Below are positions 14,337 through 47,721 of a stretch of DNA of 56,682 bases, in pieces (the first letter of the stretch is position 1; every line of letters begins with the position of its first letter). Both the position numbers and the translations under genes were made by a program. Below the pieces are notes generated by a model. The model was given only the letters and a program-made list of their open reading frames with translations, was not told the DNA's origin and made no database searches. The stretch is from the NCBI GenBank assembly GCA_048227095.1, contig DBFAHJ010000085.1, positions 1-56,682 on the forward strand, read 5' to 3'. This DNA comes from Collinsella aerofaciens (GTDB taxonomy: Bacteria > Actinomycetota > Coriobacteriia > Coriobacteriales > Coriobacteriaceae).

Positions 14337-14367
14337 GACCCCAGCACCTCCTATCCCATACGTCTAC

Positions 14368-14401: not shown

Positions 14402-14424
14402 GGATACAAACGTTTGCGCAGCGA

Positions 14425-32953: not shown

Positions 32954-34092
32954 TTCCAGGCCTCGAAATGCTCGTAAGCAGCCATGCCAGTCGCCGTGAA
33001 CGTCTTCCCATCCCGGTACACGCGCAGCGCCGAATCCAGAAGGGGCAGATACGCCATGGCGCCCGCGCCCTCGCCCAAGTGCATGCCTGCGTCGAGGGGT
33101 GCCTTTATGCCGAGCTCGCGAAGGAGCTCCTGGCTTGCGGGTTCGCTTGATGCGTGGGTGCCCACGAGGTAGCCCAAGACGTTGGGGCACAGGCGCGCCG
33201 TGCACAGGGCCGCCGTGCAGGATATGACCCCGTCAAGGAGCGCAGGCGCCTTCGAGGCAGCGGCCCCCAGGTAGAAGCCGCACATCGCCGCGATGTCAAA
33301 GCCGCCCACCTTCGAGAGCACGTCGATCGGGTCGGCGGAATCGGGCGAGTTCGCGTCGATAGCGCGCTCGACCACGTCGCGCTTGCGCGCGAGCGAGGCG
33401 TCCGAGAGCCCCGCGCCGCGCCCGACGAGGCTCCGCGCGTCCGCCCGGATGAGCACTGCGGCCACCGCCGCCGAGGTGGTCGTGTTGCCGATGCCCATCT
33501 CGCCCGCGGCGAGAAGGCGCACGCCGGCACGGACAAGCCCGCACGCGACGGCGATTCCGACCTCGATCGCGCGCACGGCCCCATCGCGAGACATAGCGGA
33601 GCCGTGCGCGATATTGCCGCTCCCCCGCCGCACGTTCGCGCGAACCATGCGCGCGTCTTCTATGCCCCGGGCCATACCCACGTCGACGGGCACGACCTCG
33701 GCACCCGCGAACGCCGCCATGCGGCAAGCGCTTGTGGCCCCCTCGCACATGTTGCGCGCGACGGCTCGCGTCACGTCTTGCCCGCTTTGCGACACGCCTT
33801 CGGCAACGACCCCGTTGTCGGAGAAGAATACCGCGAGCGCACGGGGGAACTCGGCCACCTCGGCGCTCCCCTGAGCCGCGGCGATACACGCGACGGCGTC
33901 TTCAAAGTCGCCCAATCCCCCCAAGGGGTGCGCGATGGAGTCCCACGCGGCGTACGCGGCGGCGCGGGCGCACTCGTCTGCGGGCGCGATCCGGGAGAGA
34001 GCGGCTTCGAGCACGGCGCCCGGCGCCGACGAGAACGCGCGCTCGACTTCCTCGCGGATGCAGGCAAGCGCGGTTTCGGTTGCTTCAGCCAT
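32950..34092 (-). CDS. cobT: Nicotinate-nucleotide--lower ligand phosphoribosyltransferase
   Basis: SDNGVVAEGVS, GEMGIGNTTTS, GGFDIAAM, LDGVIS, MHLGEGAG. Confidence 0.94.
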   Translation of the reverse strand: MAEATETALACIREEVERAFSSAPGAVLEAALSRIAPADECARAAAYAAWDSIAHPLGGLGDFEDAVACIAAAQGSAEVAEFPRALAVFFSDNGVVAEGVSQSGQDVTRAVARNMCEGATSACRMAAFAGAEVVPVDVGMARGIEDARMVRANVRRGSGNIAHGSAMSRDGAVRAIEVGIAVACGLVRAGVRLLAAGEMGIGNTTTSAAVAAVLIRADARSLVGRGAGLSDASLARKRDVVERAIDANSPDSADPIDVLSKVGGFDIAAMCGFYLGAAASKAPALLDGVISCTAALCTARLCPNVLGYLVGTHASSEPASQELLRELGIKAPLDAGMHLGEGAGAMAYLPLLDSALRVYRDGKTFTATGMAAYEHFEAWK

Positions 34093-35467
34093 GCCGTCTC
34101 CTCTCTGCGAACGACGCTGCGGCAGACGCGAACGCGCGCGCAACGTCGGGGTTAGCAGGATAATACACATGCGGGAAGCCCGCCACCAGGGACGGGGTGG
34201 TCGTCATGCACGGCCAGCCCTTGTCGCGCCGGGGCTTCTGCGCCCAGAAGTCGCCGCCCGGGCAGGTGGACTGCCAGTAGTGGAACTCGTGCGCGCGGAT
34301 GCGTGTGCCGCGCGGCCCGTAGAGCCCGTCGCGTTGGGAAGTGAGCTCCACGTACCCGAAATAGGACAGCCTTCCCCCGTTCTCGCTTGCGCCCTCAAGG
34401 GCGCCCACAACAGGCCAGCGCCGCCCCTCGCTATCGGCGATTTCGCGCTGCAGAAACAGAAACCCACCGCATTCGGCAACCGTCGGCATGCCGGATTCCA
34501 CCGCGCGCCGCACCGCCTCGCGCATCGGCGCGTTCTCGGAGAGCTGCCGCGCATGGAGCTCCGGGTAGCCGCCTCCCAGATAGAGGGCGCTTGTCCCCCG
34601 GGGCAACTCGCTATCACACAGGGGGCTGAAAAAGGCCAGCTCGCAACCCAGGTCCTCGAGCGCGCGCAGGTTCTCCTCGTAGTAGAACGAGAACGCCTCG
34701 TCACGCGCGACGGCGACGATGGGCCGCTCTCCCGCGATCGACTCCAACCGGTAAGGTTCCTCGCGGATATCGGGTGCCGTCGCCGCTATTTCGAGCAAGC
34801 GGTCGACGTCGACGCTCTTTTCCACCAGCTCGGCCATCTTGTCGATGCGCGCGGAGAGCTGCTTGACTTCGTCGGCGGTCACAAGCCCCAGATGCCGGCT
34901 TTCGAGCGAGAACGCCTCGTCGGCGGGGATATTACCCAAAACCGCGACGCCCGTGTGCTTCTCGATCGCAGGCTTCGCGTAGGCGCAGGCAGCGGCGCTC
35001 GTCTTGTTCAGCACGACGCCGCGCACGTTCGCACAAGGCAGGAACTCGGCGATGCCGCGGATTACGGCGGCGAGCGATAAAGACGCCCCGCGCCCGTTCA
35101 CCACTAAAACGACCGGCGTTTCCGTGTCGCGCGCAACCTGGTAGCTGCTCGCGTCGGCCACGCCGGGCGCCATGCCGTCGTAGAAGCCCATGACCCCCTC
35201 GAGCACCGCGATATCCGCGCCCGCGGCGCCGCGTGCGAGCAGGGCGCGAAGCGTCGGGGCGTCGGTAAAGAAGCCGTCTAAGTTGCCCGAGCGAGCGCCC
35301 ACGACGCGGCGATGAAAGAGCGGGTCAATGTAGTCGGGGCCGCATTTAAAGGCCGCGCATGCAAGGCCGCGGCGCGCGAGCGCGCGCAGGAGCGCGCACG
35401 TAACGACCGTCTTGCCGCTCCCGCTCGAGGGCGCAGCGACCATGAAGCGCGGAATGGACGTGCTCAC
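34085..35467 (-). CDS. cbiA: Cobyrinate a,c-diamide synthase (CbiA/CobB)
   Basis: SGSGKT, FKCGPDYIDP, EGVMGFYDG, ESRHLGL, GGGYPEL, AECGG, AHEFHY. Confidence 0.95.
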   Translation of the reverse strand: MSTSIPRFMVAAPSSGSGKTVVTCALLRALARRGLACAAFKCGPDYIDPLFHRRVVGARSGNLDGFFTDAPTLRALLARGAAGADIAVLEGVMGFYDGMAPGVADASSYQVARDTETPVVLVVNGRGASLSLAAVIRGIAEFLPCANVRGVVLNKTSAAACAYAKPAIEKHTGVAVLGNIPADEAFSLESRHLGLVTADEVKQLSARIDKMAELVEKSVDVDRLLEIAATAPDIREEPYRLESIAGERPIVAVARDEAFSFYYEENLRALEDLGCELAFFSPLCDSELPRGTSALYLGGGYPELHARQLSENAPMREAVRRAVESGMPTVAECGGFLFLQREIADSEGRRWPVVGALEGASENGGRLSYFGYVELTSQRDGLYGPRGTRIRAHEFHYWQSTCPGGDFWAQKPRRDKGWPCMTTTPSLVAGFPHVYYPANPDVARAFASAAASFAERRRHG

Positions 35468-36813
35468 CGGGCACCGCCTTCCCCACCTGCACCACGCGCG
35501 CTGACGAGGAACACGGGGTTTTGAGCCTTCATAAGATGGTGCGAGCCTACAGCCTCGGCGCGGGCGGCCGACACCTGGCACGCCTCGAACCCCTTAAAGC
35601 GCGAACCCGAGAGGAGCGCGCACGCCTCAGTGAGTGTCTCAATGGTGACGCATGGCACACACAGGCGAACCTGCGAGTTCTTCTCGAGCGCCGCCTCCAC
35701 GATGAAGGGAAGCTCGCCCGCGCTCCCGCCGACGAACACGGCGTCGGGGACGGGCAGTTTCGCGAGCGCTTCGGGAGCGACGCCGGGGACCGCATACACG
35801 TTGCCGCACCCGAATGCATCCGCGTTCTCTCGGATGAGCCGCACGCCGGCCGCGTTGCGCTCGACCGCCCATACCGACCCCGCTCGCGCGACGAGCGCCG
35901 CCTCGATCGACACGCTCCCCGTGCCGGCGCCGACGTCCCACACGGTGTCGGTCGCGGTAAGGCGCAGCTTCGCGAGCGCGACGGCTCGCACCTCCTGCTT
36001 GGTCATGGGAACGTCGCCGCGGATGAAGAGCTCGTCGGGAATGCCCGAGGAAGCGTACGGCCAGCGGGAGCTCGCGGCGCGAGATGCGCCCGCAGAGTCC
36101 GCCACGGAAGAAGCCGCCGCGGGCGCAGACGCGCCGGCCGGCGCCTCGGAGGCTGCGCTAGAGCCCGCAGGCGACCCGGCGCCGCCTGCGAAATCGATAA
36201 GCATCACGTTCAAGTCTTCGAACTTCTGACCTGCGATTTCACTTGCGGTCGCACAGGTGATGCGCTCGTCGGGGTACGACAGGCGCTCGGCCACCGTCAC
36301 GCGCGCGTCCCCGAAGCCCGCCTGCACAAGCTCGCCCGAAAGCCGCGAGGGGTCTTCCCCACCCGACGTGGCGAGAAAGAGCTCACCCGCTCGCTCGGCC
36401 TCGGCCACGATGTCGCACGCCACGCCGTGAGCGCTCGCGAAGCGCCAATCCTGCCATGGACGCGCGAGGCGCGCGGCGAGATACGATGCTGAGCTTATGC
36501 CGGGAATGACGCGCACGTCCACCTGCGCGTCGCCGGAGAGTGCCTCCACCAGGCGGCGCGCGCCGCTGAACAGCCCCACATCGCCCGTCATCACGACCAC
36601 GGCGCGCTGCCACGACGCCGCATCGGTGAGCGCGGCGACGATGTCCGCCGTCTTCACGAGCTCGCATCTCACCACGTCGGGCGGCACGTCGATGCCGGCA
36701 AGCGCGCGGTGAGCGCCGATGACCACGTCGGCGATGTCGATCGCGTCGAGCGCCGCGCGCGAGAGCAAGTCGGGGTTTCCGGGCCCCGCCCCGATAATCG
36801 TTACCTTTCGCAT
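35464..36813 (-). CDS. cbiET: Fused cobalt-precorrin-7 C5-methyltransferase / C15-methyltransferase-decarboxylase (CbiET)
   Basis: IIGAGPGNP, TGDVGLFSG and IPGISS (CbiE); VPMTKQEVR, WDVGAGTGSVSIE and KAQNPV (CbiT). Confidence 0.92.
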   Translation of the reverse strand: MRKVTIIGAGPGNPDLLSRAALDAIDIADVVIGAHRALAGIDVPPDVVRCELVKTADIVAALTDAASWQRAVVVMTGDVGLFSGARRLVEALSGDAQVDVRVIPGISSASYLAARLARPWQDWRFASAHGVACDIVAEAERAGELFLATSGGEDPSRLSGELVQAGFGDARVTVAERLSYPDERITCATASEIAGQKFEDLNVMLIDFAGGAGSPAGSSAASEAPAGASAPAAASSVADSAGASRAASSRWPYASSGIPDELFIRGDVPMTKQEVRAVALAKLRLTATDTVWDVGAGTGSVSIEAALVARAGSVWAVERNAAGVRLIRENADAFGCGNVYAVPGVAPEALAKLPVPDAVFVGGSAGELPFIVEAALEKNSQVRLCVPCVTIETLTEACALLSGSRFKGFEACQVSAARAEAVGSHHLMKAQNPVFLVSARGAGGEGGAR

Positions 36814-37544
36814 GGAATCTCCCGATACCCGCGCGGCGTGACCATACGGCCGCCTACGAGCTTCGTGTCCGCGTTGCCGACGAACACGGTGGTGAACATG
36901 TCGGCGTCGAACTCCCCCAGCTCGGAGAGCCTGCACATGCCCGACTGCTGCCCCTCGCGCCCGATGTTGCGTACCCAGCCGCAGAGCGTGTCGGGGGCCT
37001 TCCATTCGAGCATAATCTTCGCCGCGCGCGAGAGCCTGTCGGCGCGCTTTCTGCTGCGCGGGTTGTACAAACAGATGCAGAAGTCGGCGCTCGCCACGGC
37101 GGCGAGCCTGCGCTCGATGACCTCCCACGGCGTGAGCAGGTCGGAGAGCGACACGACCGCGAAGTCGTGGGCAAGCGGGGCGCCGAGCACCGCCGACCCG
37201 CTCTGAGCCGCGGTGGCCCCGGCGATAACTTCCACGTCTACATCGGGGTAGTCCTCCGCAAGCTCCAGCACGGGGCTCGCCATGCCGTACACGCCCGCGT
37301 CACCGCTGCACACGAGCGCCACTGCTTCTCCGCTCTGCGCGCGCGAAAGCGCCAGGCGGCACCGTTCGACCTCGTGCATCATCGGCGTCGCGAGATGCGC
37401 CGCGTCGGGCACGGCGGCGAGCGCGAGCTCCACGTATTTCGTGTACCCCACAACGATGTCGGCCGCCTCGAGCGCGCGCCGAGCCGCAATCGTCATGCCG
37501 TCGGGGCCGCCCGGGCCGATCCCCACCACGAAGAGCTTTCCCAT
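36801..37544 (-). CDS. cbiH: Cobalt-factor III C17-methyltransferase (CbiH/CobJ)
   Basis: VVGIGPG, SGDAGVYGMAS, GAPLAHDF..SLSDLLTPW, LYNPRS, TPRGY. Confidence 0.95.
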   Translation of the reverse strand: MGKLFVVGIGPGGPDGMTIAARRALEAADIVVGYTKYVELALAAVPDAAHLATPMMHEVERCRLALSRAQSGEAVALVCSGDAGVYGMASPVLELAEDYPDVDVEVIAGATAAQSGSAVLGAPLAHDFAVVSLSDLLTPWEVIERRLAAVASADFCICLYNPRSRKRADRLSRAAKIMLEWKAPDTLCGWVRNIGREGQQSGMCRLSELGEFDADMFTTVFVGNADTKLVGGRMVTPRGYREIPCER

Positions 37545-38677
37545 CACCGCTCCTTAAACGAAAGTTCGATAGTTACCTTGGAAAACGCGACGGTCACGCC
37601 GCCGTGAGCGAGCTTCGGGAAGATAAGTTTACCCCCGTCCGCGAGCGCCGCGCGCTCGCACACGTTGTCGACCCCCACCGTCGCGCGCACGAAATCAGAT
37701 GGCGAAACGCTGCCTTCGACCTGCGACAACTCCTCTGCGGAATACGTCGCAAGCGGGATATTGCGCGCGCGGCAGAAGGCGAGCAGACCCTCCTCGTGCG
37801 CCTTCACGTCGATCGTCGCCGCCTCGCGCACGGCCGAAGGCGAGATGCCCGCCTGCCCGCACGCGAGAAGAAACGCCTCCCCGATGGCTTCGGCGCACGC
37901 ACCGCGACGGCACCCTATGCCCGCAACGATGCAAGGCACGACAAGGCGAAGCGGCTCGGGCGCAGGCGCCTGCGCCCGCACGCCCGCCGGCTTCCCCGTC
38001 TCACCGGCGGGCACGACCTCGCCCGTTGTCTCCGCCGCGCGAAAGGACGCACCTCCATTCGCGCCAGCGAACGGCGACACGACGATATCGGCCCGAGCGC
38101 GGTGGGACGCAATGTCAACCCCCTCAGGCGGCTGTCCCGAAATCGGCATGTCGGAATAGAGCGCCACGCGCCCACCCGAAAGCAGCCGCGCCGACACTCG
38201 CTTGATAGCCTCGGGATTCGAAACGACGAGCCCCGCACAGCGCGCCCACGTATCCACCGCCCACACGCCGCGGACGTCGGTCGCCGTGGTGATGACGGGG
38301 ATGGCCCCTGCCGCGCGTGCCACAGTTTGCGCAAGCTCGTTCGCACCGCCCAAATGCCCCGACAAAAGCGGGACGGCAAAGCGCCCCGCCTCGTCGATCG
38401 CCACAACCGCGGGATCGTTTGCCTTCGAGGCGACATGCGGCGCGATCGCCCGCACGGCGATGCCCGCCGCGCCCACGAACAGAAGCGCGTCCGACGCTTC
38501 CCACGCGAGCGCCGTCCATGCGCGCAGGTCGGCCTTCCCCTCGCCGAACCCGCGCGAAACGGAAACGTCCCAGCCAGGGTCGTCTTCACCTGTCTGTGCG
38601 CAATCGGAAAGCGCGTGTGCGGTGCGCACCGCCAACGCATACCCCCTCTCAGTGAACGCTATGCAGGAAACCCTCAT
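37544..38677 (-). CDS. cbiG: Cobalt-precorrin-5A hydrolase
   Basis: GIAVRAIAP, DPAVV, LLSGHLGGANEL, ITTATD, GIGCRRG, VGVDNVCERAA. Confidence 0.94.
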   Translation of the reverse strand: MRVSCIAFTERGYALAVRTAHALSDCAQTGEDDPGWDVSVSRGFGEGKADLRAWTALAWEASDALLFVGAAGIAVRAIAPHVASKANDPAVVAIDEAGRFAVPLLSGHLGGANELAQTVARAAGAIPVITTATDVRGVWAVDTWARCAGLVVSNPEAIKRVSARLLSGGRVALYSDMPISGQPPEGVDIASHRARADIVVSPFAGANGGASFRAAETTGEVVPAGETGKPAGVRAQAPAPEPLRLVVPCIVAGIGCRRGACAEAIGEAFLLACGQAGISPSAVREAATIDVKAHEEGLLAFCRARNIPLATYSAEELSQVEGSVSPSDFVRATVGVDNVCERAALADGGKLIFPKLAHGGVTVAFSKVTIELSFKER

Positions 38678-38911
38678 CTAGCGCACCACCATCGTCGAGA
38701 AGTAGCTGCCCCGATCGGGCACATCGTCGAGCGAGCGGTACACGCGCTCGCCCGGAAGCCCACAGTCCTCTACAAGCTCGGCACCGTCGAAGGCACCCTC
38801 CTCGCAAAGGAAGCGCTTCGTGTCCGCAAGCGAGCGGCGCGCCTTCATGACCACCTTCGTCCCCGGCCAGCCGATTGCACGGCGCACCCCGTACAGAACG
38901 CCTTTACTCAT
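38678..38911 (-). pseudogene. cbiL: CbiL (cobalt-precorrin-2/factor II C20-methyltransferase) with a large in-frame internal deletion
   Basis: Only 77 aa: N-terminal MSKGVLYGV joined directly to C-terminal GTKVVMK...VEDCGLPGERVY..SYFSTMVVR; the G.GPGDPEL and GDP SAM-binding motifs are absent. Confidence 0.8.
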
Positions 38912-40088
38912 ACGTCGCCCCCAATTTCCCGATAACTGCATCGGCGCCCGACGTGCGGAAAAGCTCGCGGCGCTCGGCGTCGAACACGACCGCGGCGATG
39001 TCGCATGCGCCCGCCGCGCGGCGGCGCAACCTGTCCTCGATTGCCGCAGCGAGCGAGGCGCGCGCAGCGTCCCCCACGCCGGCGGCCTCGATTACCTCGA
39101 GCGCCGCCGTGGTCGTGACCGACGACAGGATCTCACGCACGGTCTTCGCGCCCGCGCCGGCCAAGGCCGCGTGGGCGGCCAGAATCTCCGCGCGGCAGTC
39201 GGCGGTACGCGAATGGGTGTCCATGATGCCGCCCGCGACCTTCACCAACTTGCCGATGTGTCCCACAAGAAGGACATTAGTAAATCCCTCGCGAACGCAG
39301 CAATCAATCGCATCGCCCACAAAGTTGGAGATAAAGACCACCGGCGCACCGTTTAGGTGGAAATGCCCCGAGATGAACTGCCCGCCGTAGTTGCCGGGCG
39401 TGAGCACGACTCCGCGCCGCCCCATAGCCGCATGCTGCCGAATCTCGAGCTCGATGCTGTCGCGCAAAGCAGCGAGGCTGCGCGGCTCGACGATGCCCGT
39501 CGTGCCCAGGATGGAGATGCCGTCCTTTATCCCCAGGTGCGGGTTGAAGGTCTTTTCGGCAAGGGCAACACCCTCGGGTACCGAAATCGTCACAGCAATA
39601 TTTCCAGAAAAGCCGTGCGCGGCGCACACCTCGCGCACCGCCGAAGTGATCATCGCGCACGGCGTCGCGTTGATGGCGGCCGCCCCCACCGGCTGCTCGA
39701 GCCCGGGCAACGTCACGCGCCCCACGCCCACGCCGCCATCGACGGAAACTTCCGATTCGCGCGTGGGCACGCCCTTGCTGCCCGCAGCACCCGTACCCGA
39801 CCCCGCATGTTCCACGCGCGCGTACACGAGCACGCCGTCGGTCACATCGGCATCGTCGCCTGCGTCCTTTCGCACGGCGCACTGGGCGCACCCCTCGCCG
39901 ATGCATGCGTCGACCACGTTCGCTTCGACGGGCAGCCCGCCGGGGGTGACGATCGACACGAGGCCGACGGGCTTTCGTGACAAGAGCATCTCGCAGGCCG
40001 CCTTCGCCGCGAGCGCGGCGCAGCTCCCCGTGGTGTAGCCGCAGCGCAGGCGGGTCGTCCCGGTATATATGTAGTGCTCGAAGGCCAC
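38904..40088 (-). CDS. cbiD: Cobalt-precorrin-5B C1-methyltransferase
   Basis: LRCGYTTGSCAA, KDAGDDADVT, GVGRVTLPGL, KTFNPHLGI..GISILGTTGIVEP, GHIGKLVK; GTG start. Confidence 0.95.
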   Translation of the reverse strand: MAFEHYIYTGTTRLRCGYTTGSCAALAAKAACEMLLSRKPVGLVSIVTPGGLPVEANVVDACIGEGCAQCAVRKDAGDDADVTDGVLVYARVEHAGSGTGAAGSKGVPTRESEVSVDGGVGVGRVTLPGLEQPVGAAAINATPCAMITSAVREVCAAHGFSGNIAVTISVPEGVALAEKTFNPHLGIKDGISILGTTGIVEPRSLAALRDSIELEIRQHAAMGRRGVVLTPGNYGGQFISGHFHLNGAPVVFISNFVGDAIDCCVREGFTNVLLVGHIGKLVKVAGGIMDTHSRTADCRAEILAAHAALAGAGAKTVREILSSVTTTAALEVIEAAGVGDAARASLAAAIEDRLRRRAAGACDIAAVVFDAERRELFRTSGADAVIGKLGATYE

Positions 40089-40089
40089 G

Positions 40090-40881
40090 CTAGCTGCTCG
40101 CCTTCCGATACCCCGTGGCAAAAGAAGGGTCGTAAAGCTTGCTGCGCTCGTACGACTCCGCTTGCGCGCCGTTGTGCGCAAGCCCGCCGCGAGCTCCGAG
40201 CACGCGGCCCACCACCACGAGCGCCGTGCGGTCGATGCCCTCTCGCGCGCCCGCATCGGCGAGCGTGCCCACTGTGCATCGCACCACGCGCTCCTCAGGC
40301 CAGGTCGCCTTGTACACGAGCGCCGCCGGCTCGTCGGAACTGCGGCCCGCGGCCAAAAGCTCGGCGGAAAGCTCGGCGAGCATACCCGAGCTCAGGAAGA
40401 TGACCATGGTCGAGCCGCTTTCCGCCATGGTGCGCATGCCCTCGCCCGCGGGCATGGGGGTGCGTCCGGAAAGCCGCGTGATCACGACCGACTGGCTGAT
40501 TCCCGGCAGCGTGTATTCCTGGCGAAGTGCCGCCGCGGCACCGCAAAAGCTCGACACGCCGGGCACCACCTCGTAGTCCACGCCGCGCGCGTCGAGCGCG
40601 TCCATCTGCTCCTGGATGGCGCCGTACAGGCACGGGTCGCCCGTGTGCAGGCGCACCACGTCCTCGCCCCGCGCATCTGCCGCGCACATCACGTCGAGCA
40701 CTTCCTCCAAGGTCATGTGCGCGCTGTCGTAGACGATGCAGGATTCCTTGCACTCAGCGAGCAGCTCGGGGTTCACAAGGCTTCCCGCCCAAACGACCAC
40801 GTCGGCTGCGCGCAGAAGGCGCGCCCCGCGCAGCGTGATAAGGTCGGCGGCGCCCGAGCCTGCGCCAACGATATGAATCAT
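40090..40881 (-). CDS. cbiF: Cobalt-precorrin-4 C11-methyltransferase (CbiF/CobM)
   Basis: IVGAGSGAADLIT, AGSLVN, RLHTGDP..YGAIQEQ, YKATWPEE, SKLYDPSF. Confidence 0.95.
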   Translation of the reverse strand: MIHIVGAGSGAADLITLRGARLLRAADVVVWAGSLVNPELLAECKESCIVYDSAHMTLEEVLDVMCAADARGEDVVRLHTGDPCLYGAIQEQMDALDARGVDYEVVPGVSSFCGAAAALRQEYTLPGISQSVVITRLSGRTPMPAGEGMRTMAESGSTMVIFLSSGMLAELSAELLAAGRSSDEPAALVYKATWPEERVVRCTVGTLADAGAREGIDRTALVVVGRVLGARGGLAHNGAQAESYERSKLYDPSFATGYRKASS

Positions 40882-41012
40882 CCGAGCCTTCCCTTCCCGT
40901 TTCTCATCGCAACCGTTTACGCCGCCATTCGCGCAGCGGGCAAAACACGGCGCCTGCGGCGGCAATCGGCGCAAATACGCAGGCAGGAGGCGCAATGCCG
41001 CCCGCCCTGGCT

Positions 41013-41041
41013 TTGACACGTTCACAAGTGCCCACTATCAT
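41013..41041 (+). promoter_or_regulatory. Sigma70-type promoter for the cbiK-transport operon
   Basis: TTGACA-17 nt-TATCAT. Confidence 0.8.
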
Positions 41042-41074
41042 AGTAAAAGATTCGGCAACGAGCATATGACAATC

Positions 41075-41225
41075 GGATAAAAGGAAATGACCGGCGCGGC
41101 GCCCGCACAGCCCGCGCTGGCTTGCGGAGGGAACCAGGTGGGAAACCTGGGCAAGGGACATTACTGTATAGGACGCGCGGGCGAACCGCCTCGCGCCCCA
41201 AGCCAGACTGCTTCGCCTTTTCCTC
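41075..41225 (+). ncRNA. Cobalamin riboswitch (short form), boundaries approximate
   Basis: GGGAA-ccaGGTGggaaaCCtgg-...ACTGTA...AAGCCAG core elements in order, downstream of the promoter and upstream of cbiK. Confidence 0.78.
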
Positions 41226-41339
41226 ACGGCATCGCCGTGGCGTTAGCTCCTTGTGAACCCCGAGGGGTGCGCTTTTCTTTCGCTTGTGCCGACAAGCAAC
41301 TGTCGCCGGGGGACCGGCAAACCGAAGAAAGGAAAAACC

Positions 41340-42266
41340 ATGTCCGACCAGATGTCACGCCGCGGCTTCATGGGCGCCGCAGCAACCGGAGCCGTCGCGC
41401 TCGCCGGAATCGCGCTCGCGGGCTGCTCCAACACCTCCGCGAGTTCCGAGAAATCGAGTGAAAAGGAGAAGGCCGTGAAGCCGGTCATCCTCGTCACGAG
41501 CTTCGGCACGAGCTACAACGACTCGCGCCACATCACCATCGGCGCCATCGAAGACGCTATCCGCGAGAAGTACTGGCAGGACTACGACATCCGCCGCGCC
41601 TTCACCGCCCAGATCATCATCGACAAGCTGAAGAAGCGCGACGGCATCACGATCGACAACATGACCGAGGCGCTCGACCGCTGCGTGGAAGACGGCGTGA
41701 AGGAAATCGTCGTGCAGCCGACGCATCTCATGGGTGGCCTGGAATACACCGACGTGAAAGACGAGCTCGACAAGTACGCCGACAAGTTCGACAAAATCTC
41801 GCTCGGCGACCCGCTGCTCACCTCCGACGACGACTACAAGAAGGTGGCCGCAGCCATTAAGGAGAACATGGCGTCCTTCGACGACGGCAAGACGGCGCTG
41901 TGCCTCATGGGCCACGGCACCGAAGCCGATTCCAACGCCGACTATGCCAAGATGCAGGAAGTGTTTAAGAACGAGGGCTTGACGCAGTTCTTCGTCGGCA
42001 CCGTCGAGGCTGAGCCGACCTGTGAGGATGTTATCGCCGCCGCGAGCGCCGCAGGGTACAAGAAGGCCGTGCTCGCGCCGTTCATGGTGGTCGCGGGCGA
42101 CCACGCGAACAACGACATGGCAGACGAGACCGACCCCGACAGCTGGGCTGCAAAGTTCGTGGCCGCTGGCTTCGAAGTGACGTGCCTGCTCCAGGGTCTG
42201 GGACAGAACGCCGCGGTCGACGACATCTACGTCTCGCACGTGGACGACGCCATCGCCAAGCTGTAA
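41340..42266 (+). CDS. cbiK: CbiK-type cobaltochelatase with twin-arginine signal and lipobox (extracytoplasmic lipoprotein)
   Basis: SRRGFM...LAGC; SFGTSY, RRAFTA, QPTHLM.GLEY, MGHGT, VGTVEAEP, VAGDHANNDMA, GLGQN. Confidence 0.9.
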   Translation: MSDQMSRRGFMGAAATGAVALAGIALAGCSNTSASSEKSSEKEKAVKPVILVTSFGTSYNDSRHITIGAIEDAIREKYWQDYDIRRAFTAQIIIDKLKKRDGITIDNMTEALDRCVEDGVKEIVVQPTHLMGGLEYTDVKDELDKYADKFDKISLGDPLLTSDDDYKKVAAAIKENMASFDDGKTALCLMGHGTEADSNADYAKMQEVFKNEGLTQFFVGTVEAEPTCEDVIAAASAAGYKKAVLAPFMVVAGDHANNDMADETDPDSWAAKFVAAGFEVTCLLQGLGQNAAVDDIYVSHVDDAIAKL

Positions 42267-42301
42267 ACTCGCCGCGCACGGGGGCGCCGGTCGCGTCCCC
42301 G

Positions 42302-42348
42302 TGCAACGGGCATGCGCCTTCCCCGACCGACGGCGCATGCCCGTTGCA
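42302..42348. other. Intercistronic hairpin after cbiK
   Basis: tgcaacgggcatgcgcc / ggcgcatgcccgttgca, 17-bp perfect stem. Confidence 0.7.
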
Positions 42349-42411
42349 TTCGCATCCCGCCCGCCCACCGCACGGCGCGGGCGGTCGAAGCGATTGAAAG
42401 GAACCCCCTCC

Positions 42412-42945
42412 ATGTTGAAGAAAACCCTCGCCTTCGCCCTGTCGGCGGCGCTTTTCGCGTTCTCGCTCGCCGGCTGCGGCGGAAATTCAATCGACAGCGC
42501 AAAGGCAAGCGATGCCGATTCCCAGGAAAAGACCGAACAGGCGGCCGATGCGCCCGAGGGCGCAAGCGCTGCCCCCATCACCGCCGACAAGGTGGCCGAC
42601 GGCACCTATCCGATCACCGTAGATTCCAGCTCGAACATGTTCAGGATTGTGGACGCCCAGCTCATCGTGGAAAACGGCTCCATGCACTGCGTGATGACAC
42701 TTTCCGGCACGGGCTACGGCAAGCTCTTCATGGGCACGAGTGACGAGGCTGCCGCCGCGAGCGAGGCCGACTTCATCCCCTATGTGGAAAACGCGGAAGG
42801 CAAGTACACCTACGACGTGCCCGTTGAAGCGCTCGACGAGGACACCGCCTGCGCCGCGTGGAGTATTAGAAAAGAGCAGTGGTACGACCGCACGCTCGTG
42901 TTCGAATCCGCCGGCGTCGATCTGCGCGCCGACGCACTGAAGTAA
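42412..42945 (+). CDS. Uncharacterised lipoprotein, beta-rich NEAT-like domain
   Basis: Signal peptide with LAGC lipobox; DGTYPITV..SMF..WYDRTLVF; gaaagga RBS; fold call is inference. Confidence 0.75.
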   Translation: MLKKTLAFALSAALFAFSLAGCGGNSIDSAKASDADSQEKTEQAADAPEGASAAPITADKVADGTYPITVDSSSNMFRIVDAQLIVENGSMHCVMTLSGTGYGKLFMGTSDEAAAASEADFIPYVENAEGKYTYDVPVEALDEDTACAAWSIRKEQWYDRTLVFESAGVDLRADALK

Positions 42946-42949
42946 CGCC

Positions 42950-44521
42950 ATGCGGTCGATTCTTCCCAAGGGGGAAAACAGAAAGCGCCACAGAATCGCG
43001 GCGCGCGCGATCGCCTGCGTTCTCGTCGCCCTGCTCGCGCTTCCCTTCGCGGGGTGCAGTGCGAGCCCGAACGCGACCGGTGCCACGACGGGCTCTCAGG
43101 AATACACTGTGAGCGTCTCGCTTTCCGGCGGGTCAGGGCGCGCAAGCATCGCCTCACCAACCACAATTGTGAAGGATGGCGACACCTACACCGCGACCAT
43201 CACCTGGTCGAGTTCGAACTACGACAAGATGACCGTCGACGGCGTGGACTACGCGCCCATAAACGACGGCGGCAACTCCACGTTCGAGATACCCGTCACG
43301 CTCGACGAGGACATCGCCGTGTCGGCCGAGACCGTCGCCATGTCGACGCCGCACACCATCGACTACACGATCCACTTCGACTCATCCACCATGAAGGAGA
43401 AATCGGGCGACGAAGCAAGCGGCGGCTCCCCTGCGGGAACGGCTTCAAGCGCCGCGGCCGACTTCCACAACGCCGATTTGGGCTGCGGCTGGAAGCCGAC
43501 GGGGACGCTTCAGCTTGAATACGCCGAACACTTCACTGTCGACGAGTTCGAAGGCGGCCTGCGGCTTATCTGCATTTCGAACGGGGAGCGCTTCCTCGTG
43601 GTGCCGCAAGATGCGAAGGTACCTGATGGGTTGAGCTCCGACATCGCGGTCATAAGGCGCCCCGCCGACAAGGTGTACCTCGTGTCGTCGGCGACGATGT
43701 GCCTGGTCGACGCGCTCGATGCGAACGACAATATCATCATGTCGGGCACGAAGGCCGACGATTGCTCGGTCGCGGGCTTCAAAAGCGCACTCGAAAGTGG
43801 GGCGATCGCCTACGGCGGCAAGTACAGCGAGCCCGACTACGAGCGAATATCGGCCTCGGGCTGCACGCTCGCCATCGAGAACACCATGATCAACCACACG
43901 CCCGATGTGAAGGAAAAGCTGCAGAAGCTCGGGCTCGTCGTGCTCACCGAACAGTCGTCGAGCGAGCCCGAAGCACTCGGGCGCGTCGAGTGGATTAAGC
44001 TTTTCGGCGTCCTGTTCGACAAGGAAGACGAGGCCGCGCACCTGTTCAACGAGCAGAAGACCCGCGTCGAGCAAACGTCGGGGCTCGCGTCGTCAGGTAA
44101 AACCGTGGCGTATTTCTACATTAACTCGAACGGGGCCGCCGTCACGCGGCGGGCGGGCGACTACGTGGCGCAGATGATCGAGCTTGCAGGCGGCAGCTAC
44201 GCGCTCGATGACGCGCAGACGGCGTCGACGTCAGGTTCATCAGTAACGCTCGAAATGGAGCGCTTCTACGCGACGGCGAAGGATGCCGACATCATCATCT
44301 ACAACGGCACCATCGACGAATCGGTTGCCACCTTGAACGACTTCGTAGGCAAAAACGCGCTATTGTCGCAGTTCAAAGCCGTGAAGAACGGCAACGTCTG
44401 GGTCACAAGCGCCGACATGTACCAGCAGATGACTTCTACCGCCGACATTATCGACGAGCTGCACGGGGCGTTCACCGGCGATGACGCGAGCGACTTCCAT
44501 TATCTGAGAAAGCTCGGCTAG
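42950..44521 (+). CDS. Lipoprotein: NEAT-like N-terminal domain fused to an Fe-siderophore/cobalamin-type ABC substrate-binding domain
   Basis: FAGC lipobox; GGSGRASI..WSSSNYD..MSTPHTIDY; then GKYSEPDYE, E.EALGRVEWIKLFG, FKAVKNGNVW. Confidence 0.82.
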   Translation: MRSILPKGENRKRHRIAARAIACVLVALLALPFAGCSASPNATGATTGSQEYTVSVSLSGGSGRASIASPTTIVKDGDTYTATITWSSSNYDKMTVDGVDYAPINDGGNSTFEIPVTLDEDIAVSAETVAMSTPHTIDYTIHFDSSTMKEKSGDEASGGSPAGTASSAAADFHNADLGCGWKPTGTLQLEYAEHFTVDEFEGGLRLICISNGERFLVVPQDAKVPDGLSSDIAVIRRPADKVYLVSSATMCLVDALDANDNIIMSGTKADDCSVAGFKSALESGAIAYGGKYSEPDYERISASGCTLAIENTMINHTPDVKEKLQKLGLVVLTEQSSSEPEALGRVEWIKLFGVLFDKEDEAAHLFNEQKTRVEQTSGLASSGKTVAYFYINSNGAAVTRRAGDYVAQMIELAGGSYALDDAQTASTSGSSVTLEMERFYATAKDADIIIYNGTIDESVATLNDFVGKNALLSQFKAVKNGNVWVTSADMYQQMTSTADIIDELHGAFTGDDASDFHYLRKLG

Positions 44522-44525
44522 CGCC

Positions 44526-45566
44526 ATGAGAAGCCGGCTTTCCATGGCATACGACGAATCGGGGCGCGCCGCGCGGTGTCGCGTCGTGACGGCGCTGCTC
44601 GCTGTTGCCCTCATCGTGCTCGTCGGGGCCAACCTGTGCATCGGGAGCGTGCTCGTGCCCGCAGACCACATCCCCGGCATCCTTTCGGGCGGCGCGGCCA
44701 ATTCCATGGAAAGCCAAGTCATCTGGGAGATTCGCCTGCCGCGCGTGCTTTCAGCCGTGCTTCTCGGCGGGGCACTTTCGCTCTCCGGGTTCCTGCTGCA
44801 GACGTTTTTCAACAACCCCATCGCCGACCCGTTCATCTTGGGCGTCTCCTCGGGCGCAAAGTTCGTCGTCGCGCTTACGATGATTGTACTTCTGGGCGCG
44901 AACCAGGCCATGTCCTCCCCGGCCATGGTGGCCGCAGCGTTTCTGGGCTCGCTTATCACCATCAGCTTCGTGCTCCTCATCGCACGGCGCATAAGTTCCA
45001 TGGCCATGCTCATCGTGGCAGGCGTCATGGTGGGATACATCTGCTCAGCGGCGACGAACTTCCTCATCGCCTTCGCCGACGACCAGTCCATCGTGAACCT
45101 GCACAACTGGTCTTTGGGTAGCTTCTCGGGTTCGAGCTGGGACGACGTCGCGGTCATCGCGGTCGTGGTGATCACCGTGAGCGCATGCGTATTCGCGATA
45201 TCGAAGCCCCTTTCCGCCTTCCAGCTGGGAGAAGCCTACGCGAAAAGCGTCGGCGTGAACGTCGCACGCTTCCGCGTGGTGCTCGTCCTTCTAGCGAGCA
45301 TGCTCTCCGCCTGCGTGACCGCTTTCGCTGGTCCGGTGTCGTTCGTAGGCATCGCAGTTCCGCATCTCGTGAAGTCGGCGCTGAAGTCGTCGAAGCCCAT
45401 CCGCGTGATTCCTGCGTGCTTCTTGGGAGGCGCCATCTTCTGCGCGGGCTGCGATTTGATCGCGCGCACGCTGTTCTCTCCCGTCGAGCTTTCCATCAGC
45501 GCCGTCACCGCCATCTTCGGCGCGCCGGTGGTTATCGCGCTCATGTTGAAGAAACGAGTGAGGTAG
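44526..45566 (+). CDS. FecCD/BtuC-family ABC permease
   Basis: IRLPRV, LQTFFNNPIADPFILGVSSGA, LGEAYAKSVGV, FVGIAVPH; start may be 44544. Confidence 0.93.
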   Translation: MRSRLSMAYDESGRAARCRVVTALLAVALIVLVGANLCIGSVLVPADHIPGILSGGAANSMESQVIWEIRLPRVLSAVLLGGALSLSGFLLQTFFNNPIADPFILGVSSGAKFVVALTMIVLLGANQAMSSPAMVAAAFLGSLITISFVLLIARRISSMAMLIVAGVMVGYICSAATNFLIAFADDQSIVNLHNWSLGSFSGSSWDDVAVIAVVVITVSACVFAISKPLSAFQLGEAYAKSVGVNVARFRVVLVLLASMLSACVTAFAGPVSFVGIAVPHLVKSALKSSKPIRVIPACFLGGAIFCAGCDLIARTLFSPVELSISAVTAIFGAPVVIALMLKKRVR

Positions 45567-46883
45567 ATGGGGGAATTCATGCCGCGGCCCAAAACGCTCG
45601 GAGGGGGCATTCCATGCTTAGACAGTCCTGAGCTCGCGCGAAAGCGCCAGAAGGCACTTTCGGCTCGTGCGGGACTGCGCGCGGAACGCCTCCTCCGAGC
45701 GGAGTCGAACCTCGAAACCCCGGTCGAAACGCAGGCTGACGGAGCACCGCTTTTCCGCATAAGCGACCTGTCGGCGGGCTACGACAAGAAGGTCGTAGTC
45801 GAAGGCGTCGATCTGGAGGTTCGCGCGGGCGACGTCGTGGCGCTCATCGGGCCGAACGGCTCGGGCAAGTCGACCATCTTGAAAACCATCACACGCCATC
45901 TGGCACCGCTTGCCGGCGCGGTCGAGCTCGACGGGCGGGAGATTTCCCGATGGAAGACGGCGGAGTTCGCAAGGAACCTTGCCGTTATGCTGACAGATCG
46001 CCCCCGGACCGAGCTCCTCACCTGCCGCGATATCGTAGAGGCAGGAAGGCATCCCTACACCGGGCGAATGGGCACACTCTTGCCCGACGACCATAGTCGG
46101 GTCGACGAGGCCATGAAAACCGCACATGTGGAAGAGCTCGCCGAGCGCGACTTCATGCAGATAAGCGACGGGCAACGCCAGCGCGTCATGCTCGCACGCG
46201 CCATCGCGCAGGATCCGCGTGTGCTCGTGCTCGACGAGCCCACATCGTATCTCGATATCCGCTACCAGATCGACCTGCTGCGAATACTTCGCCACCTTGC
46301 GAAATCGCAGAATGTGGCTGTCATCATGTCCATCCACGAACTCGAGCTCGCGCAGAAAAGCGCCGACAAGGTGATTTGCGTGAAGGACGGTCGGGTCTTC
46401 CGCGCCGGCGCACCCGAGGACATATTCACGCGCGAGACGATTGGCGAGCTCTACGGCCTTCAACATGGCACCTTCAACGAGCGCTTCGGCAGCGTGGAAA
46501 TTGGGCGCCCGCACGGCGATGCGCACACGTTCGTCATCGCCGGCGCGGGTACGGGGTCGGCTGTGTTTCGCCAGCTCATCCGGCAGGGCAAGGCGTTCTA
46601 CGCGGGCGTTCTGCACGAAGGGGACATCGACTGTGAGCTCGCGCGCGACCTGGCGGCGGAATGCGTGGCCGAGCGCGCCTTCGAGCCTATCGGGGATAAA
46701 ACCATAGCCCACGCCAAAGAGCTCCTCGTCCACTGTGCGCGCCTTATCGTGTGCCCCGCCGCCTTCGGCACCATAAACGCCCGCAACGCAGAGCTCGTCG
46801 AGTTCGCACGCTCGCATGGTATCGAGGTCATGCGAGCGTGCGAAGGCGCATCGGAGGATTCCCAATTGGAGTGGGAAGGATAA
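45567..46883 (+). CDS. FepC/BtuD-family ABC ATPase with C-terminal extension
   Basis: GPNGSGKST, ISDGQRQRVMLARA, LDEPTSYLD, SIHEL. Confidence 0.92.
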   Translation: MGEFMPRPKTLGGGIPCLDSPELARKRQKALSARAGLRAERLLRAESNLETPVETQADGAPLFRISDLSAGYDKKVVVEGVDLEVRAGDVVALIGPNGSGKSTILKTITRHLAPLAGAVELDGREISRWKTAEFARNLAVMLTDRPRTELLTCRDIVEAGRHPYTGRMGTLLPDDHSRVDEAMKTAHVEELAERDFMQISDGQRQRVMLARAIAQDPRVLVLDEPTSYLDIRYQIDLLRILRHLAKSQNVAVIMSIHELELAQKSADKVICVKDGRVFRAGAPEDIFTRETIGELYGLQHGTFNERFGSVEIGRPHGDAHTFVIAGAGTGSAVFRQLIRQGKAFYAGVLHEGDIDCELARDLAAECVAERAFEPIGDKTIAHAKELLVHCARLIVCPAAFGTINARNAELVEFARSHGIEVMRACEGASEDSQLEWEG

Positions 46884-46907
46884 ACTGGACTTTTTTAAGG
46901 ATCCTCA

Positions 46908-46991
46908 GGCTACAGCTCCTACGCCGGCGAGGTCTCCAAGGCGCCGGAGAACCTCGTGAACAGGAATTTCCACGCCGACGAGCCCAACTAG
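46908..46991 (+). pseudogene. IS3-family transposase (OrfB) fragment
   Basis: Translates GYSSYAGEVSKAPENLVNRNFHADEPN*, the segment that precedes the W.TDITE rve motif in IS3/IS150-type OrfB. Confidence 0.75.
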
Positions 46992-46993
46992 GC

Positions 46994-47605: not shown

Positions 47606-47721
47606 GGGCGTGTCCCTTCGATATGCGAGCATTCATCAACAGATGAGAGATAATCTACGTAAGAGGATTATCCCCCATACAGCACAAATATGCCTCGCAT
47701 CATGAAGAACGCACGACTGCC

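Follow-up and report, generated by a model that had tools for sequence, protein, structure and literature searches.

We tentatively propose, at somewhat less than an even chance, that a cobalamin-repressed operon of the gut bacterium Collinsella aerofaciens captures a scavenged tetrapyrrole at the cell surface, probably inserts cobalt into it there, and imports it for use by the cbi pathway; the bacterium may then perform one B12-synthetic step, or else capture a B12 precursor, outside the cell. The operon lies at positions 41013-46883 (+ strand) of the window, the entire 56,682-nucleotide stretch of DNA that was analysed, and has five genes preceded by a sigma-70-like promoter and a structured leader. 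Its layout had been described from the sequence alone, and that description was borne out as a whole; the accompanying interpretation, a cell-surface relay that hands captured cobalt or a tetrapyrrole to an importer, was supported in part.

The operon is transcribed from its promoter through a compact leader of the cobalamin-riboswitch type. The promoter (TTGACA-17-TATCAT, 41013..41041, + strand), present as the sequence-only reading had it, matches the consensus at 11 of 12 positions (0.0 such matches expected, 50 shuffles), and in RNA-seq data RNA 5' ends cluster 18-26 nt 3' of it, at 41059-41067. Stranded RNA-seq of a strain ~99% identical gave a depth of ~2000 on cbiK, declining to ~200 on the ATPase gene. 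The leader (41086..41285, + strand), within which a terminator-like hairpin (41246-41268, + strand) is followed by a U-rich tail, had been called a cobalamin riboswitch. Rfam in gathering mode found no cobalamin riboswitch in the window, and in E-value mode RF00174 matched 41086-41196 with 14.3 bits (E = 0.3) against a gathering score of 31.5, so by Rfam's own criterion the leader is not a member of that family. From its conserved sequence and predicted pairing, it is instead a compact relative. The core GGGAA-N-GGUG-N-AA-CC ... ACUG ... AGCCAGA-N-GCC belongs to a leader kept across several genera (7 loci), in which compensatory changes occur at 12 of 39 predicted pairs, and model R1, built from the compact leaders, matches 41088-41285 and cross-hits the Rfam-annotated canonical cobalamin riboswitches of loci L122, L106 and L115. 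The compact variant precedes the cassette, as we term this gene set, in 7/7 Collinsella-type loci, and a canonical cobalamin riboswitch lies directly upstream of it in all eight of the more distant loci of other types (L105, 70 bits; L106, 84; L115, 60; L122, 70; L120, 41; L114, 54; L117, 55; L119, 56). B12 control is therefore real across the cassette family, with a riboswitch or its compact relative at 15 loci.

The first gene (ATG 41340, stop 42266; 41340..42266, + strand) encodes a class II chelatase of the CbiK family (Pfam CbiK, E = 4e-79) which, judged by its motifs, is exported and lipid-anchored and has an intact chelatase site. Its N-terminus (MSDQMSRRGFMG...IALAGC) carries the Tat motif SRRGFM and the lipobox LAGC with Cys29, and both histidine motifs, MGHGT (H192) and AGDHA (H255), are retained, in agreement with the sequence-only reading; the tat genes for which it had advised a check were found as tatC and an adjoining tatA/B-family gene on contig C14 of the assembly. 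In the 14 aligned exported CbiKs from cassette loci, H129, H192, E223 and H255 are invariant, and all 14 bear an export signal, be it Tat with a lipobox, Tat with signal peptidase I or Sec with a lipobox. The closest solved structure is that of S. enterica CbiK (1qgo, E = 3e-44), a biosynthetic enzyme to which the protein is nearer in sequence than to FetB (9b86, E = 7e-38) or to the periplasmic CbiK of D. vulgaris (2xvx, E = 8e-33). It is also the sole match in an assembly 85% complete to CbiK and CbiX, the two chelatase families that the search covered, and in that scope it bears out the claim that the island has no other chelatase.

Two further lipoproteins carry NEAT-type beta-sandwich domains, in one case fused to a substrate-binding domain. 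Lipoprotein 2 (42412..42945, + strand; 177 aa; lipobox SLAGC), with the invariant motifs SSSSMF, GYGKLFMG and WYDR, is predicted to adopt the NEAT fold (NEAT-like domain A): the core of its AF2 model exceeds pLDDT 90, its top Foldseek matches are nearly all NEAT domains, and in a VIA wide search of 48,161 chains the ten best were all NEAT/Shp (Z 9.2 to 5.6), while Pfam NEAT reached E = 0.1 at best, far under threshold. Lipoprotein 3 (42950..44521, + strand; 523 aa; lipobox PFAGC) joins NEAT-like domain B, at about residues 50-150, to a cluster A-II substrate-binding domain (Peripla_BP_2, residues 245-488, E = 3.6e-32) whose fold is matched about equally by siderophore, haem and B12 binders. 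In its AF2 model (pLDDT 84.7) the N-terminal domain is all-beta, and residues 52-150 share 59% identity with a segment of P0111 that scores 32.2 bits against Pfam NEAT. The label "NEAT-like", originally given to both, thus stands by fold for the small lipoprotein; for the N-terminal domain of lipoprotein 3 it is near-threshold only, and by way of homologues. The last two genes encode, as anticipated, a FecCD/BtuC-type permease (44526..45566, + strand; Pfam FecCD, E = 3.7e-81) and an ABC ATPase with a C-terminal extension of ~140 aa (45567..46883, + strand; ABC_tran, E = 4.6e-31), which together form a BtuCD-type ABC importer. Their top NCBIfam models are BtuC (211 bits, under the cut-off of 334) and the "corrinoid ABC transporter ATPase" PRK09536 (249 bits, under the cut-off of 537).

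Divergent from the operon is a cob/cbi island (25033..40881, - strand) delineated by Pfam and NCBIfam matches, with the order, from 25033 to 40881, cbiJ, cbiC, btuR, cobQ, cobD, cbiB, cobC, cobS, cobU, cobT, cbiA, cbiET, cbiH, cbiG, a cbiL remnant, cbiD and cbiF. The remnant (38681..38911, - strand; 77 aa), which matches TIGR01467 at model positions 161-229 only, reflects an in-frame 453-bp deletion that is clean relative to the intact cbiL of genome G003; of 60 close loci that could be evaluated, 57 have, like the window, a dead cbiL, and G038 gave no cbiL match at all. The simple route in which Co-sirohydrochlorin enters and passes to CbiL is consequently impossible in this strain. The early pathway, already thought to be missing, is so by the genes sought: neither HemB nor HemC was found in the window's own genome, HemC was found in 0/60 genomes of the genus, and CobA exceeded its cut-off in only one of five cassette genomes tested. 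The accompanying claim that CbiMNQO is missing is true of the island but wrong for the genome, which has genes for CbiM-PDGLE and CbiQ on contig C246.

The cassette recurs in Coriobacteriia and in Firmicute-like metagenome contigs, and in many cases it is embedded in or adjoins corrin-ring (cbi) genes. It runs in the same direction as cbiD-F-G(-H) in L105, L106 and L107 and divergently from these genes in Collinsella, L115 and L122. In G313, cbiL separates cbiK from the NEAT-B gene, and in G293 it adjoins the NEAT genes. A sample of 299 genomes from the class contained 84 with CbiD and 81 with NEAT-A. Four of them have CbiD but no cassette; HemC is present in all four, three having a weak CbiK-family match beside cbiD and one (G147) having none, and no genome in this sample was CbiD-positive, HemC-negative and cassette-less. 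Among nine cassette genomes at least 94% complete, eight have no extra CbiK/CbiX, and the exception, G293, has a second CbiK of cytoplasmic size; G215 shows one weak extra CbiK/CbiX match (51 bits). G313 has HemC and CobA, yet its sole CbiK/CbiX is the exported one, so that either these lineages contain an unrecognised cytoplasmic chelatase or the exported CbiK is not the pathway's chelatase. Across 80 close loci, chosen by NEAT-A similarity, the cassette is intact in 73-80, and dN/dS for cassette and ring genes is 0.11-0.40 at a low dS of 0.03-0.06; many of the counts reported here are not independent because they are drawn from close kin.

In the mechanism we favour, CbiK on the membrane's outer side would insert Co2+ into an early tetrapyrrole scavenged in metal-free form, perhaps sirohydrochlorin or a close derivative, which the cell, being without HemB, HemC and CobA, is unable to make. 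The NEAT-like domains would receive the cobalt tetrapyrrole and hand it to the binding domain, the importer would bring it to the cytoplasmic Cbi enzymes, and the leader would switch the operon off when B12 is sufficient. Because CbiL is deleted in this strain, either the imported compound must join the pathway beyond C20 methylation, or another enzyme performs that methylation, or the module now mainly salvages later corrinoids. Joint conservation of export and catalytic residues in 14/14 CbiKs argues for this scheme, as do B12 control, linkage to ring genes, the phyletic pattern, the uniqueness of the chelatase and the loss of the early pathway, and intactness, dN/dS and RNA-seq all suggest that the genes are in use. 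Against it stand the death of cbiL, the step straight after CbiK, and the situation in G313.

The main rival, which we judge unlikely though well worth weighing, is plain corrinoid salvage: a BtuFCD-type importer for cobalamin, cobinamide and other complete corrinoids, with the NEAT-like domains and exported CbiK as surface corrinoid catchers comparable to the accessory surface lipoproteins of Bacteroides, and with the nearby ring genes either merely in the same B12 regulon or decaying. The BtuC and corrinoid-ATPase models suit plain B12 import, and they count against surface capture, as do the cassettes that stand apart from ring genes (L114, L117) and the one that lacks CbiK (L119). Corrinoid salvage also accords with riboswitch control as universal as that of btuFCD, with the full lower pathway for cobinamide salvage in the island, with a MetH-like B12-binding protein in the genome and with the cbiL deletion. 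However, it leaves unexplained why exported CbiKs keep invariant chelatase residues, why ring enzymes remain under purifying selection over long divergence in HemC-less lineages, and why cbiL sits among cassette genes in G313 and G293; moreover, L115 has a plain binding protein and permease, with their own riboswitch, directly beside its cassette.

The location of CbiK outside the cytoplasm, supported by the conserved export signals, is qualified by an in-frame GTG at cbiK codon 46 (41475..41477, + strand), read from the sequence 6 nt downstream of AAGGAG, which could start a cytoplasmic isoform in this clade and weighs against surface capture. On this basis the long form and the remaining operon would constitute a B12 or precursor importer independent of outside chelation, and the short form an ordinary cytoplasmic cobaltochelatase, an arrangement we consider improbable. 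The resulting N-terminus would match that of S. enterica CbiK, the GTG is kept in 72/73 close Collinsella loci, and a second product would account for the absence of any other found chelatase. But this conservation counts for little at a dS of ~0.035; G003 has GCG at this position, and none of the 13 more distant cassette loci examined has the GTG, which is therefore not a conserved feature of the family; the Glu/Lys-rich linker yields purine-rich, Shine-Dalgarno-like strings by composition alone; and RNA-seq, which is silent on translation, shows no RNA 5' end near it. Haem or iron acquisition like that of Isd or P. gingivalis IhtB/FetB, with haem bound by the NEAT-like proteins, metal stripped or exchanged by the exported chelatase and haem or porphyrin imported, is very improbable: all known examples of the NEAT fold are haem binders, the related FetB and D. 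vulgaris periplasmic CbiK bind metalloporphyrins and the binding domain is as like haem binders as BtuF, but at 15/15 loci examined the leader is of the cobalamin-riboswitch kind, canonical or compact, with no iron- or haem-responsive element in its place, cbi genes and the cassette go together, the Pfam NEAT score is far sub-threshold, and no canonical YxxxY motif could be located.

Surface capture as we propose it shares features with several known systems. In the Isd relay, surface NEAT receptors pass metallotetrapyrrole cargo to IsdE, a cluster A-II lipoprotein, and on to IsdF, a FecCD permease. By fold the cassette follows the same logic; unlike Isd, its NEAT sequence similarity lies under the Pfam threshold, its anchoring is by lipobox or C-terminal transmembrane helix instead of sortase, it is controlled by a cobalamin riboswitch, it includes a chelatase, and its ligand is probably not haem. 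Like BtuFCD, it places a type II ABC importer with a Peripla_BP_2 binding protein downstream of a cobalamin riboswitch, but it scores under the equivalog cut-offs, its binding protein has a NEAT-like domain in addition, an exported chelatase and another NEAT-like lipoprotein accompany it in all or nearly all cases, and a plain BtuF-like set can adjoin it (L115).

The CbiK-P of D. vulgaris, according to the available accounts, is likewise an exported CbiK-family chelatase with its catalytic residues kept and its gene beside a FecCD/BtuCD-type importer; Lobo et al. in 2008 reportedly found that it has chelatase activity and binds haem. CbiK-P is soluble and periplasmic, whereas the Collinsella enzyme, in a monoderm, is a cell-surface lipoprotein; Collinsella also adds two NEAT-like domain proteins, has neither a cytoplasmic CbiK nor the early pathway, and its enzyme is the nearer to biosynthetic CbiK. 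The available text on D. vulgaris describes B12-element-regulated cbiK-cbiL and btuCDF genes, so that the B12 element and linked cbiL are common to both (PMC545781). P. gingivalis IhtB/FetB, in the excerpts at hand, is a CbiK-family lipoprotein outside the cytoplasm of a species with a corrin pathway in which precorrin-2 synthesis is impossible, and Collinsella resembles it in both respects (PMC13065792, PMC6461909). FetB differs in its outer-membrane location and its tie to haem/porphyrin metabolism (Mn-PPIX), and those excerpts describe no B12 riboswitch or NEAT partner for it, whereas the Collinsella cassette is B12-regulated and lies among cbi genes. Finally, the tetrapyrrole precursor salvagers have, like Collinsella, ring and nucleotide-loop pathways without the early steps, and are predicted to need an outside precursor (PMC6461909). 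The available part of that study (Shelton et al. 2019, PMC6461909) names no uptake system, reports tests of ALA salvage alone and counts very few Actinobacteria among the salvagers; relative to them, the Collinsella gap runs on through CobA and, in this strain, CbiL. We offer the cassette as a candidate for the module that takes up and metalates the precursor in such salvage.

The exported cbiK gene opens a cassette of five genes on the forward strand. A promoter-like site, TTGACA-17-TATCAT (41013-41041, 11 of 12 consensus matches, 0 expected by chance), precedes a 5' leader of ~270 nt that extends to cbiK (41340-42266; Pfam CbiK, E = 4e-79). Genes follow for a 177-aa lipoprotein without a Pfam or NCBIfam family (domain A; 42412-42945), a 523-aa lipoprotein, ORF3 (42950-44521), in which residues 245-488 are a Peripla_BP_2 domain and the N-terminal part (domain B) is without Pfam or NCBIfam assignment, and, by Pfam, a FecCD permease (44526-45566) and a 438-aa ABC ATPase (45567-46883). 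Divergent from these genes, on the reverse strand from 40881 down to 25033, Pfam and NCBIfam assignments delineate a cob/cbi island in the order cbiF, cbiD, cbiG, cbiH, cbiET, cbiA, cobT, cobU, cobS, cobC, cbiB, cobD, cobQ, btuR, cbiC, cbiJ. The Collinsella assembly that holds the window measures 1.88 Mb and is 85% complete.

Expression was followed over 40700-47000 in stranded raw RNA-seq reads (two runs) from a strain ~99% identical to the window. Sense RNA 5' ends begin sharply at 41059-41067, 18-26 nt 3' of the -10 hexamer. Position 41067 accounts for the 5' ends of 456 of 757 molecules in one run and 407 of 673 in the other; because the distance to the hexamer exceeds the usual start-site spacing, these may be processed ends, or the real -10 may lie elsewhere. 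Sense depth declines along the operon, from ~2000 (leader and cbiK) to ~900 (domain-A gene), 460-800 (ORF3), 290-470 (permease gene) and ~200 (ATPase gene), and falls to ~57 beyond 46819, past the stop of the ATPase gene; from the leader into cbiK there is no drop, indicating read-through in the single culture condition sampled. Antisense RNA, at a depth of ~390-590 in both runs, equals or exceeds sense RNA over the permease and ATPase genes (44300-46800), exceeding it over 44700-46800, and may be read-through from a convergent tetR-like gene at 46994-47632.

The leader had been called a cobalamin riboswitch in the sequence-only reading, a designation that fails at the Rfam cut-off but is supported by the conserved core. 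RF00174 gave no match in the window in gathering mode, and in E-value mode the leader reached 14.3 bits against a gathering score of 31.5 (E = 0.3). The same compact leader stands 5' of cbiK in six more loci (L102, L103, L104, L107, L108 and L109), which belong to other Collinsella species and other genera. All seven share a core that consists, in its 5' part, of GGGAAyCrGGUG..AAyCCyG, then CAUUACUGU, then a hairpin of variable sequence and, in its 3' part, of AGyCAGA..GCC with a GUGAACCCCGGAGG hairpin downstream; the same motifs are found in canonical copies of the cobalamin riboswitch. RNAalifold predicted 39 pairs for the seven leaders, with compensatory changes in 12 of them, and a covariance model built from these leaders (R1) cross-matches Rfam-annotated cobalamin riboswitches of unrelated loci, at 31.5 bits in L122 and more weakly in L106, L115 and the AdoCbl-II element of L122. 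We read the window leader as a compact relative of the cobalamin riboswitch without its peripheral helices. Within the 85% complete assembly, neither a second compact copy (R1 search) nor a canonical cobalamin riboswitch (RF00174 search) was found. All eight cassette loci without the compact leader carry a canonical cobalamin riboswitch directly 5' of the cassette: L105 (70 bits), L106 (84), L115 (60), L122 (70), L120 (41, the element being cut by the contig end), L114 (5027-5212; 54), L117 (5663-5855; 55) and L119 (7624-7802; 56). The last three were missed by whole-locus searches in gathering mode and required laxer filters on short stretches. That the Rfam threshold misses the compact variant matters for predictions of B12 regulons in Coriobacteriia.

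Export signals of the Tat lipoprotein type comprise a twin-arginine motif, a hydrophobic region and a lipobox cysteine. The N-terminus of the window CbiK, MSDQMSRRGFMG...IALAGC, displays S-R-R-G-F-M, an Ala/Gly-rich stretch and L-A-G-C29, in agreement with the Tat and lipobox signal first proposed, and the genome encodes Tat machinery, with a TatC match of 183 bits and an adjacent TatA_B_E gene of 49 bits on contig C14. The window protein thus appears to depart from ordinary CbiK, which is cytoplasmic and signal-less, although a short form may be possible in its clade. A putative export signal is present in all 14 cassette-linked CbiKs and is of three kinds: twin-arginine with lipobox; twin-arginine followed, in L107, by a site of the signal-peptidase-I type that lacks Cys; and a lipobox of Sec type, seen in L105, L106 and the Firmicute-like loci.

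The enzyme itself is a CbiK, a class II chelatase, by Pfam (PF06180, 266 bits vs a cut-off of 26.2), and it scores 226 bits with the CbiK equivalog NF047852, under the 400-bit cut-off. The nearest solved protein is the biosynthetic CbiK of S. enterica (1qgo, E = 3e-44), followed by P. gingivalis FetB (E = 7e-38) and the periplasmic CbiK of D. vulgaris (E = 8e-33). The counterparts of H192, H255 and E223 in 1qgo are its GHG, DHA and VE motifs, so that both chelatase histidine motifs are kept as claimed, and H129, H192, E223 and H255 are invariant in an alignment of the 14 cassette-linked proteins. We take the His-His-Glu set of the S. enterica enzyme to be its catalytic residues.

The 'NEAT-like' label given to the accessory lipoproteins is borne out by the predicted fold of domain A and not by family scores. 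The AF2 model of domain A has a core pLDDT >90; its best Foldseek matches are nearly all NEAT domains (IsdX1, Hbp2, IsdX2, IsdA, IsdC; probability 1.00), and a VIA all-against-all comparison with 48,161 chains places NEAT/Shp haem-binding domains in all of the first 10 ranks (Z 9.2-5.6), the first unrelated fold appearing at Z 5.0. As modelled, domain A has the NEAT beta-sandwich fold. Against Pfam NEAT (PF05031) it scores 13.5 bits (E = 0.1), short of the gathering score of 32.8, and a NEAT-A profile searched against the sequences of solved structures matched through the signal-peptide region alone, with no residue-level NEAT match. NEAT domains ligate haem iron through a YxxxY motif on a late strand. 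The invariant motifs of domain A are SSSSMF, GYGKLFMG and WYDR, and an invariant W-Y-D-R/H occupies its last long strand. Domain B is predicted to be all-beta over residues 50-150 of the AF2 model. Other taxa carry it as a C-terminal fusion to domain A. It shares 59% identity with a stretch of the homologous protein P0111 that scores 32.2 bits against Pfam NEAT, another homologue reaching 29.0, both under the cut-off of 32.8. With the whole ORF3 model, Foldseek matches are dominated by the binding domain, to which siderophore, haem and B12 binders appear equally alike. Two predictions of a complex between mature CbiK and NEAT-A each scored 0.00, a value taken neither for nor against their association.

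The FecCD, ABC ATPase and Peripla_BP_2 matches all exceed their Pfam cut-offs and lie in one operon, the composition of a type II importer of the BtuCD/FecCD class. The permease scores 211 bits with the BtuC equivalog (cut-off 334), and the ATPase 249 bits with PRK09536, 'corrinoid ABC transporter ATPase' (cut-off 537). The ATPase also bears a C-terminal extension of ~140 aa, which the PRK09536 model covers, positions 2-349 of 402 of the model aligning to ATPase residues 61-400.

The exported CbiK, described from the sequence as the only chelatase of the island, is the only CbiK or CbiX found in the 85% complete assembly. The early pathway is likewise missing as proposed: HemC and HemB were not found in the same assembly, and across 60 genus genomes CbiK occurs in 33, CbiD in 29 and HemC in 0. 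The only TP_methylase genes of the window's genome are cbiF, cbiH, cbiE and rsmI. The accompanying claim that CbiMNQO is missing is contradicted by contig C246, which carries, outside the island, genes for a CbiM-PDGLE fusion and CbiQ (L009 575-1660 and 1-597, reverse strand), so the genome is not devoid of an ECF cobalt/nickel transporter. The genome also encodes a MetH-like B12-binding protein, as does that of the genus-mate G001, where CbiK, CbiD and NEAT-A were not found.

Among the cassette genomes tested, HemC was found in G313 and G293 only, and of five tested for CobA only G313 scored above the cut-off. In nine cassette genomes with a completeness of 94% or more, no separate CbiX was found; G293 has an additional CbiK of cytoplasmic size, and G215 a weak extra CbiK match. 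G313 (L106; contigs C33 and C36) combines HemC and CobA with an exported lipoprotein as its sole CbiK/CbiX-family gene. In a class-wide sample of 299 genomes, CbiD occurs in 84 and domain A in 81, the single domain-A genome without CbiD having its match at a contig edge. Four CbiD genomes lack the cassette and all four have HemC, so every HemC-lacking ring-pathway genome sampled has the cassette; three of the four show only a weak CbiK-family match, adjoining cbiD, and G147 shows none.

The cassette is also present in other Coriobacteriia and in low-GC, Firmicute-like metagenome contigs, the latter found through P0100, a Paratissierella-type homologue. It is co-directional with cbiD-cbiF-cbiG(-cbiH) in L105, L106 and L107, and diverges from these genes in Collinsella and in L115 and L122; in each of the last two loci the diverging cbi operon has a riboswitch to itself. 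The cbiK and domain-B genes of G313 flank cbiL, and in G293 an exported cbiK is followed by two NEAT-type genes and then cbiL. The cassette stands amid unrelated genes in L114 and L117, and lacks cbiK in L119. Because L114/L115/L117/L119, L105/L106 and L108/L109 are close kin, locus counts overstate independence; the contig scan matched 80 near-identical Collinsella loci, which served for integrity and dN/dS and not for diversity. Adjoining the cassette in L115, a second cobalamin riboswitch (99 bits) precedes a plain Peripla_BP_2 protein and a FecCD permease (13009-14853), so that this locus is, by its predicted genes, two B12-regulated importers in adjacent positions. In L104 (G293, contig C18; 1857-3104 and 4617-5624, reverse strand), NEAT A+B proteins lack a lipobox start and end in a hydrophobic helix and basic tail, a putative second mode of surface anchoring; no ABC importer genes adjoin these genes. 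Contigs C11 of G209 and of G269 carry Collinsella-type islands with Collinsella-level scores, though both genomes are filed under another family, which reflects either transfer or bin contamination.

Collectively, these observations are consistent with a surface module, repressed by B12, that supplies the corrin pathway with an acquired tetrapyrrole. Within this framework we favour extracellular cobalt insertion and subsequent import, to which we give somewhat less than an even chance, because the exported enzyme retains the chelatase site, because it is the sole CbiK/CbiX in most hosts, because it has genetic ties to cbiL and the ring genes, and because its presence goes with the loss of the early pathway. 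Surface-anchored CbiK would insert cobalt into a tetrapyrrole precursor scavenged in the gut, and an unrecognised branch of the NEAT fold, specialised for cobalt tetrapyrroles, would relay the product to the ABC importer. That a step of anaerobic B12 synthesis occurs outside the cell and that a new NEAT-fold branch serves cobalt tetrapyrroles, not haem, is together a tentative proposal. If the extracellular step is real, bacteria without hem or cobA genes could finish the corrin ring, and the uptake system of the 'tetrapyrrole precursor salvagers' would be named.

Against extracellular insertion stand the deletion of cbiL here, the early pathway of G313 with only an exported CbiK, and the stand-alone cassettes. 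The window CbiL match is limited to model positions 161-229, in a 77-aa remnant (38681-38911, reverse strand) that has lost the SAM-binding part through a clean 453-bp in-frame deletion relative to comparison genome G003. Intact cbiL occurs in 9 of 60 genus genomes, and among 60 evaluable close Collinsella loci it is intact in 2, a remnant in 57 and cut by a contig end in 1; it is also intact in G091, G126, G093, G215, G313, G209 and G293, with no match in G038. Neighbouring genes, including the ring genes, are intact in the remnant-bearing loci. There, pairwise dN/dS is 0.17 for cbiK, 0.15 for the permease, 0.24 for the ATPase and 0.33 for ORF3, and 0.20 for cbiF, 0.27 for cbiD, 0.40 for cbiG and 0.11 for cbiH, values that are indicative only, given a dS of 0.03-0.06 and loci picked by domain-A similarity, the domain-A value of 0.016 being biased for the same reasons. 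Plain corrinoid salvage, in which the importer would take up finished corrinoids, is the strongest rival, though we consider it less probable than the favoured reading. Less probable again is a dual-start cbiK yielding a short isoform from codon 46 in the window's clade: this codon is GTG (41475-41477) with AAGGAG six bases 5', the predicted product would begin as the cytoplasmic enzyme does, and 72 of 73 close loci retain the GTG, but G003 has GCG there and no start codon occupies that place in any of 13 more distant loci, so the codon-46 start is not a family feature. Haem or iron uptake is the least probable reading, ranked low because of the predicted B12-type riboswitch control.

The favoured reading, surface acquisition with cobalt insertion outside the cell, makes the cassette a testable candidate for how bacteria that keep the ring enzymes and are unable to make the precursor obtain it, a question raised earlier both for Porphyromonas gingivalis and for 'tetrapyrrole precursor salvagers', a class defined in PMC6461909. 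The five-gene module is widespread, predicted to be B12-regulated, and expressed in a culturable gut species, with natural cbiL+ and cbiL- variants. Should its NEAT-like domains prove to bind corrinoids or cobalt tetrapyrroles, the ligands of the NEAT fold would no longer be limited to haem, and the module would offer a Gram-positive counterpart to the Bacteroides surface B12-capture proteins. A monoderm cassette with NEAT-like partners was not found described at the mostly title and abstract level of the literature searched, and selected terms retrieved nothing on exported CbiK from PMC7689651 and PMC11348799.

The cassette also bears on the role of exported CbiK homologues. According to PMC545781, Desulfovibrio has such homologues beside BtuCD-type transporters under a B12 element, and the Collinsella arrangement resembles it in joining an exported CbiK to a neighbouring BtuCD-type transporter and B12-element control. 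The likeness to P. gingivalis lies in the CbiK-family lipoprotein itself, which there, as summarized in PMC13065792, resides in the outer membrane and has chelatase activity.
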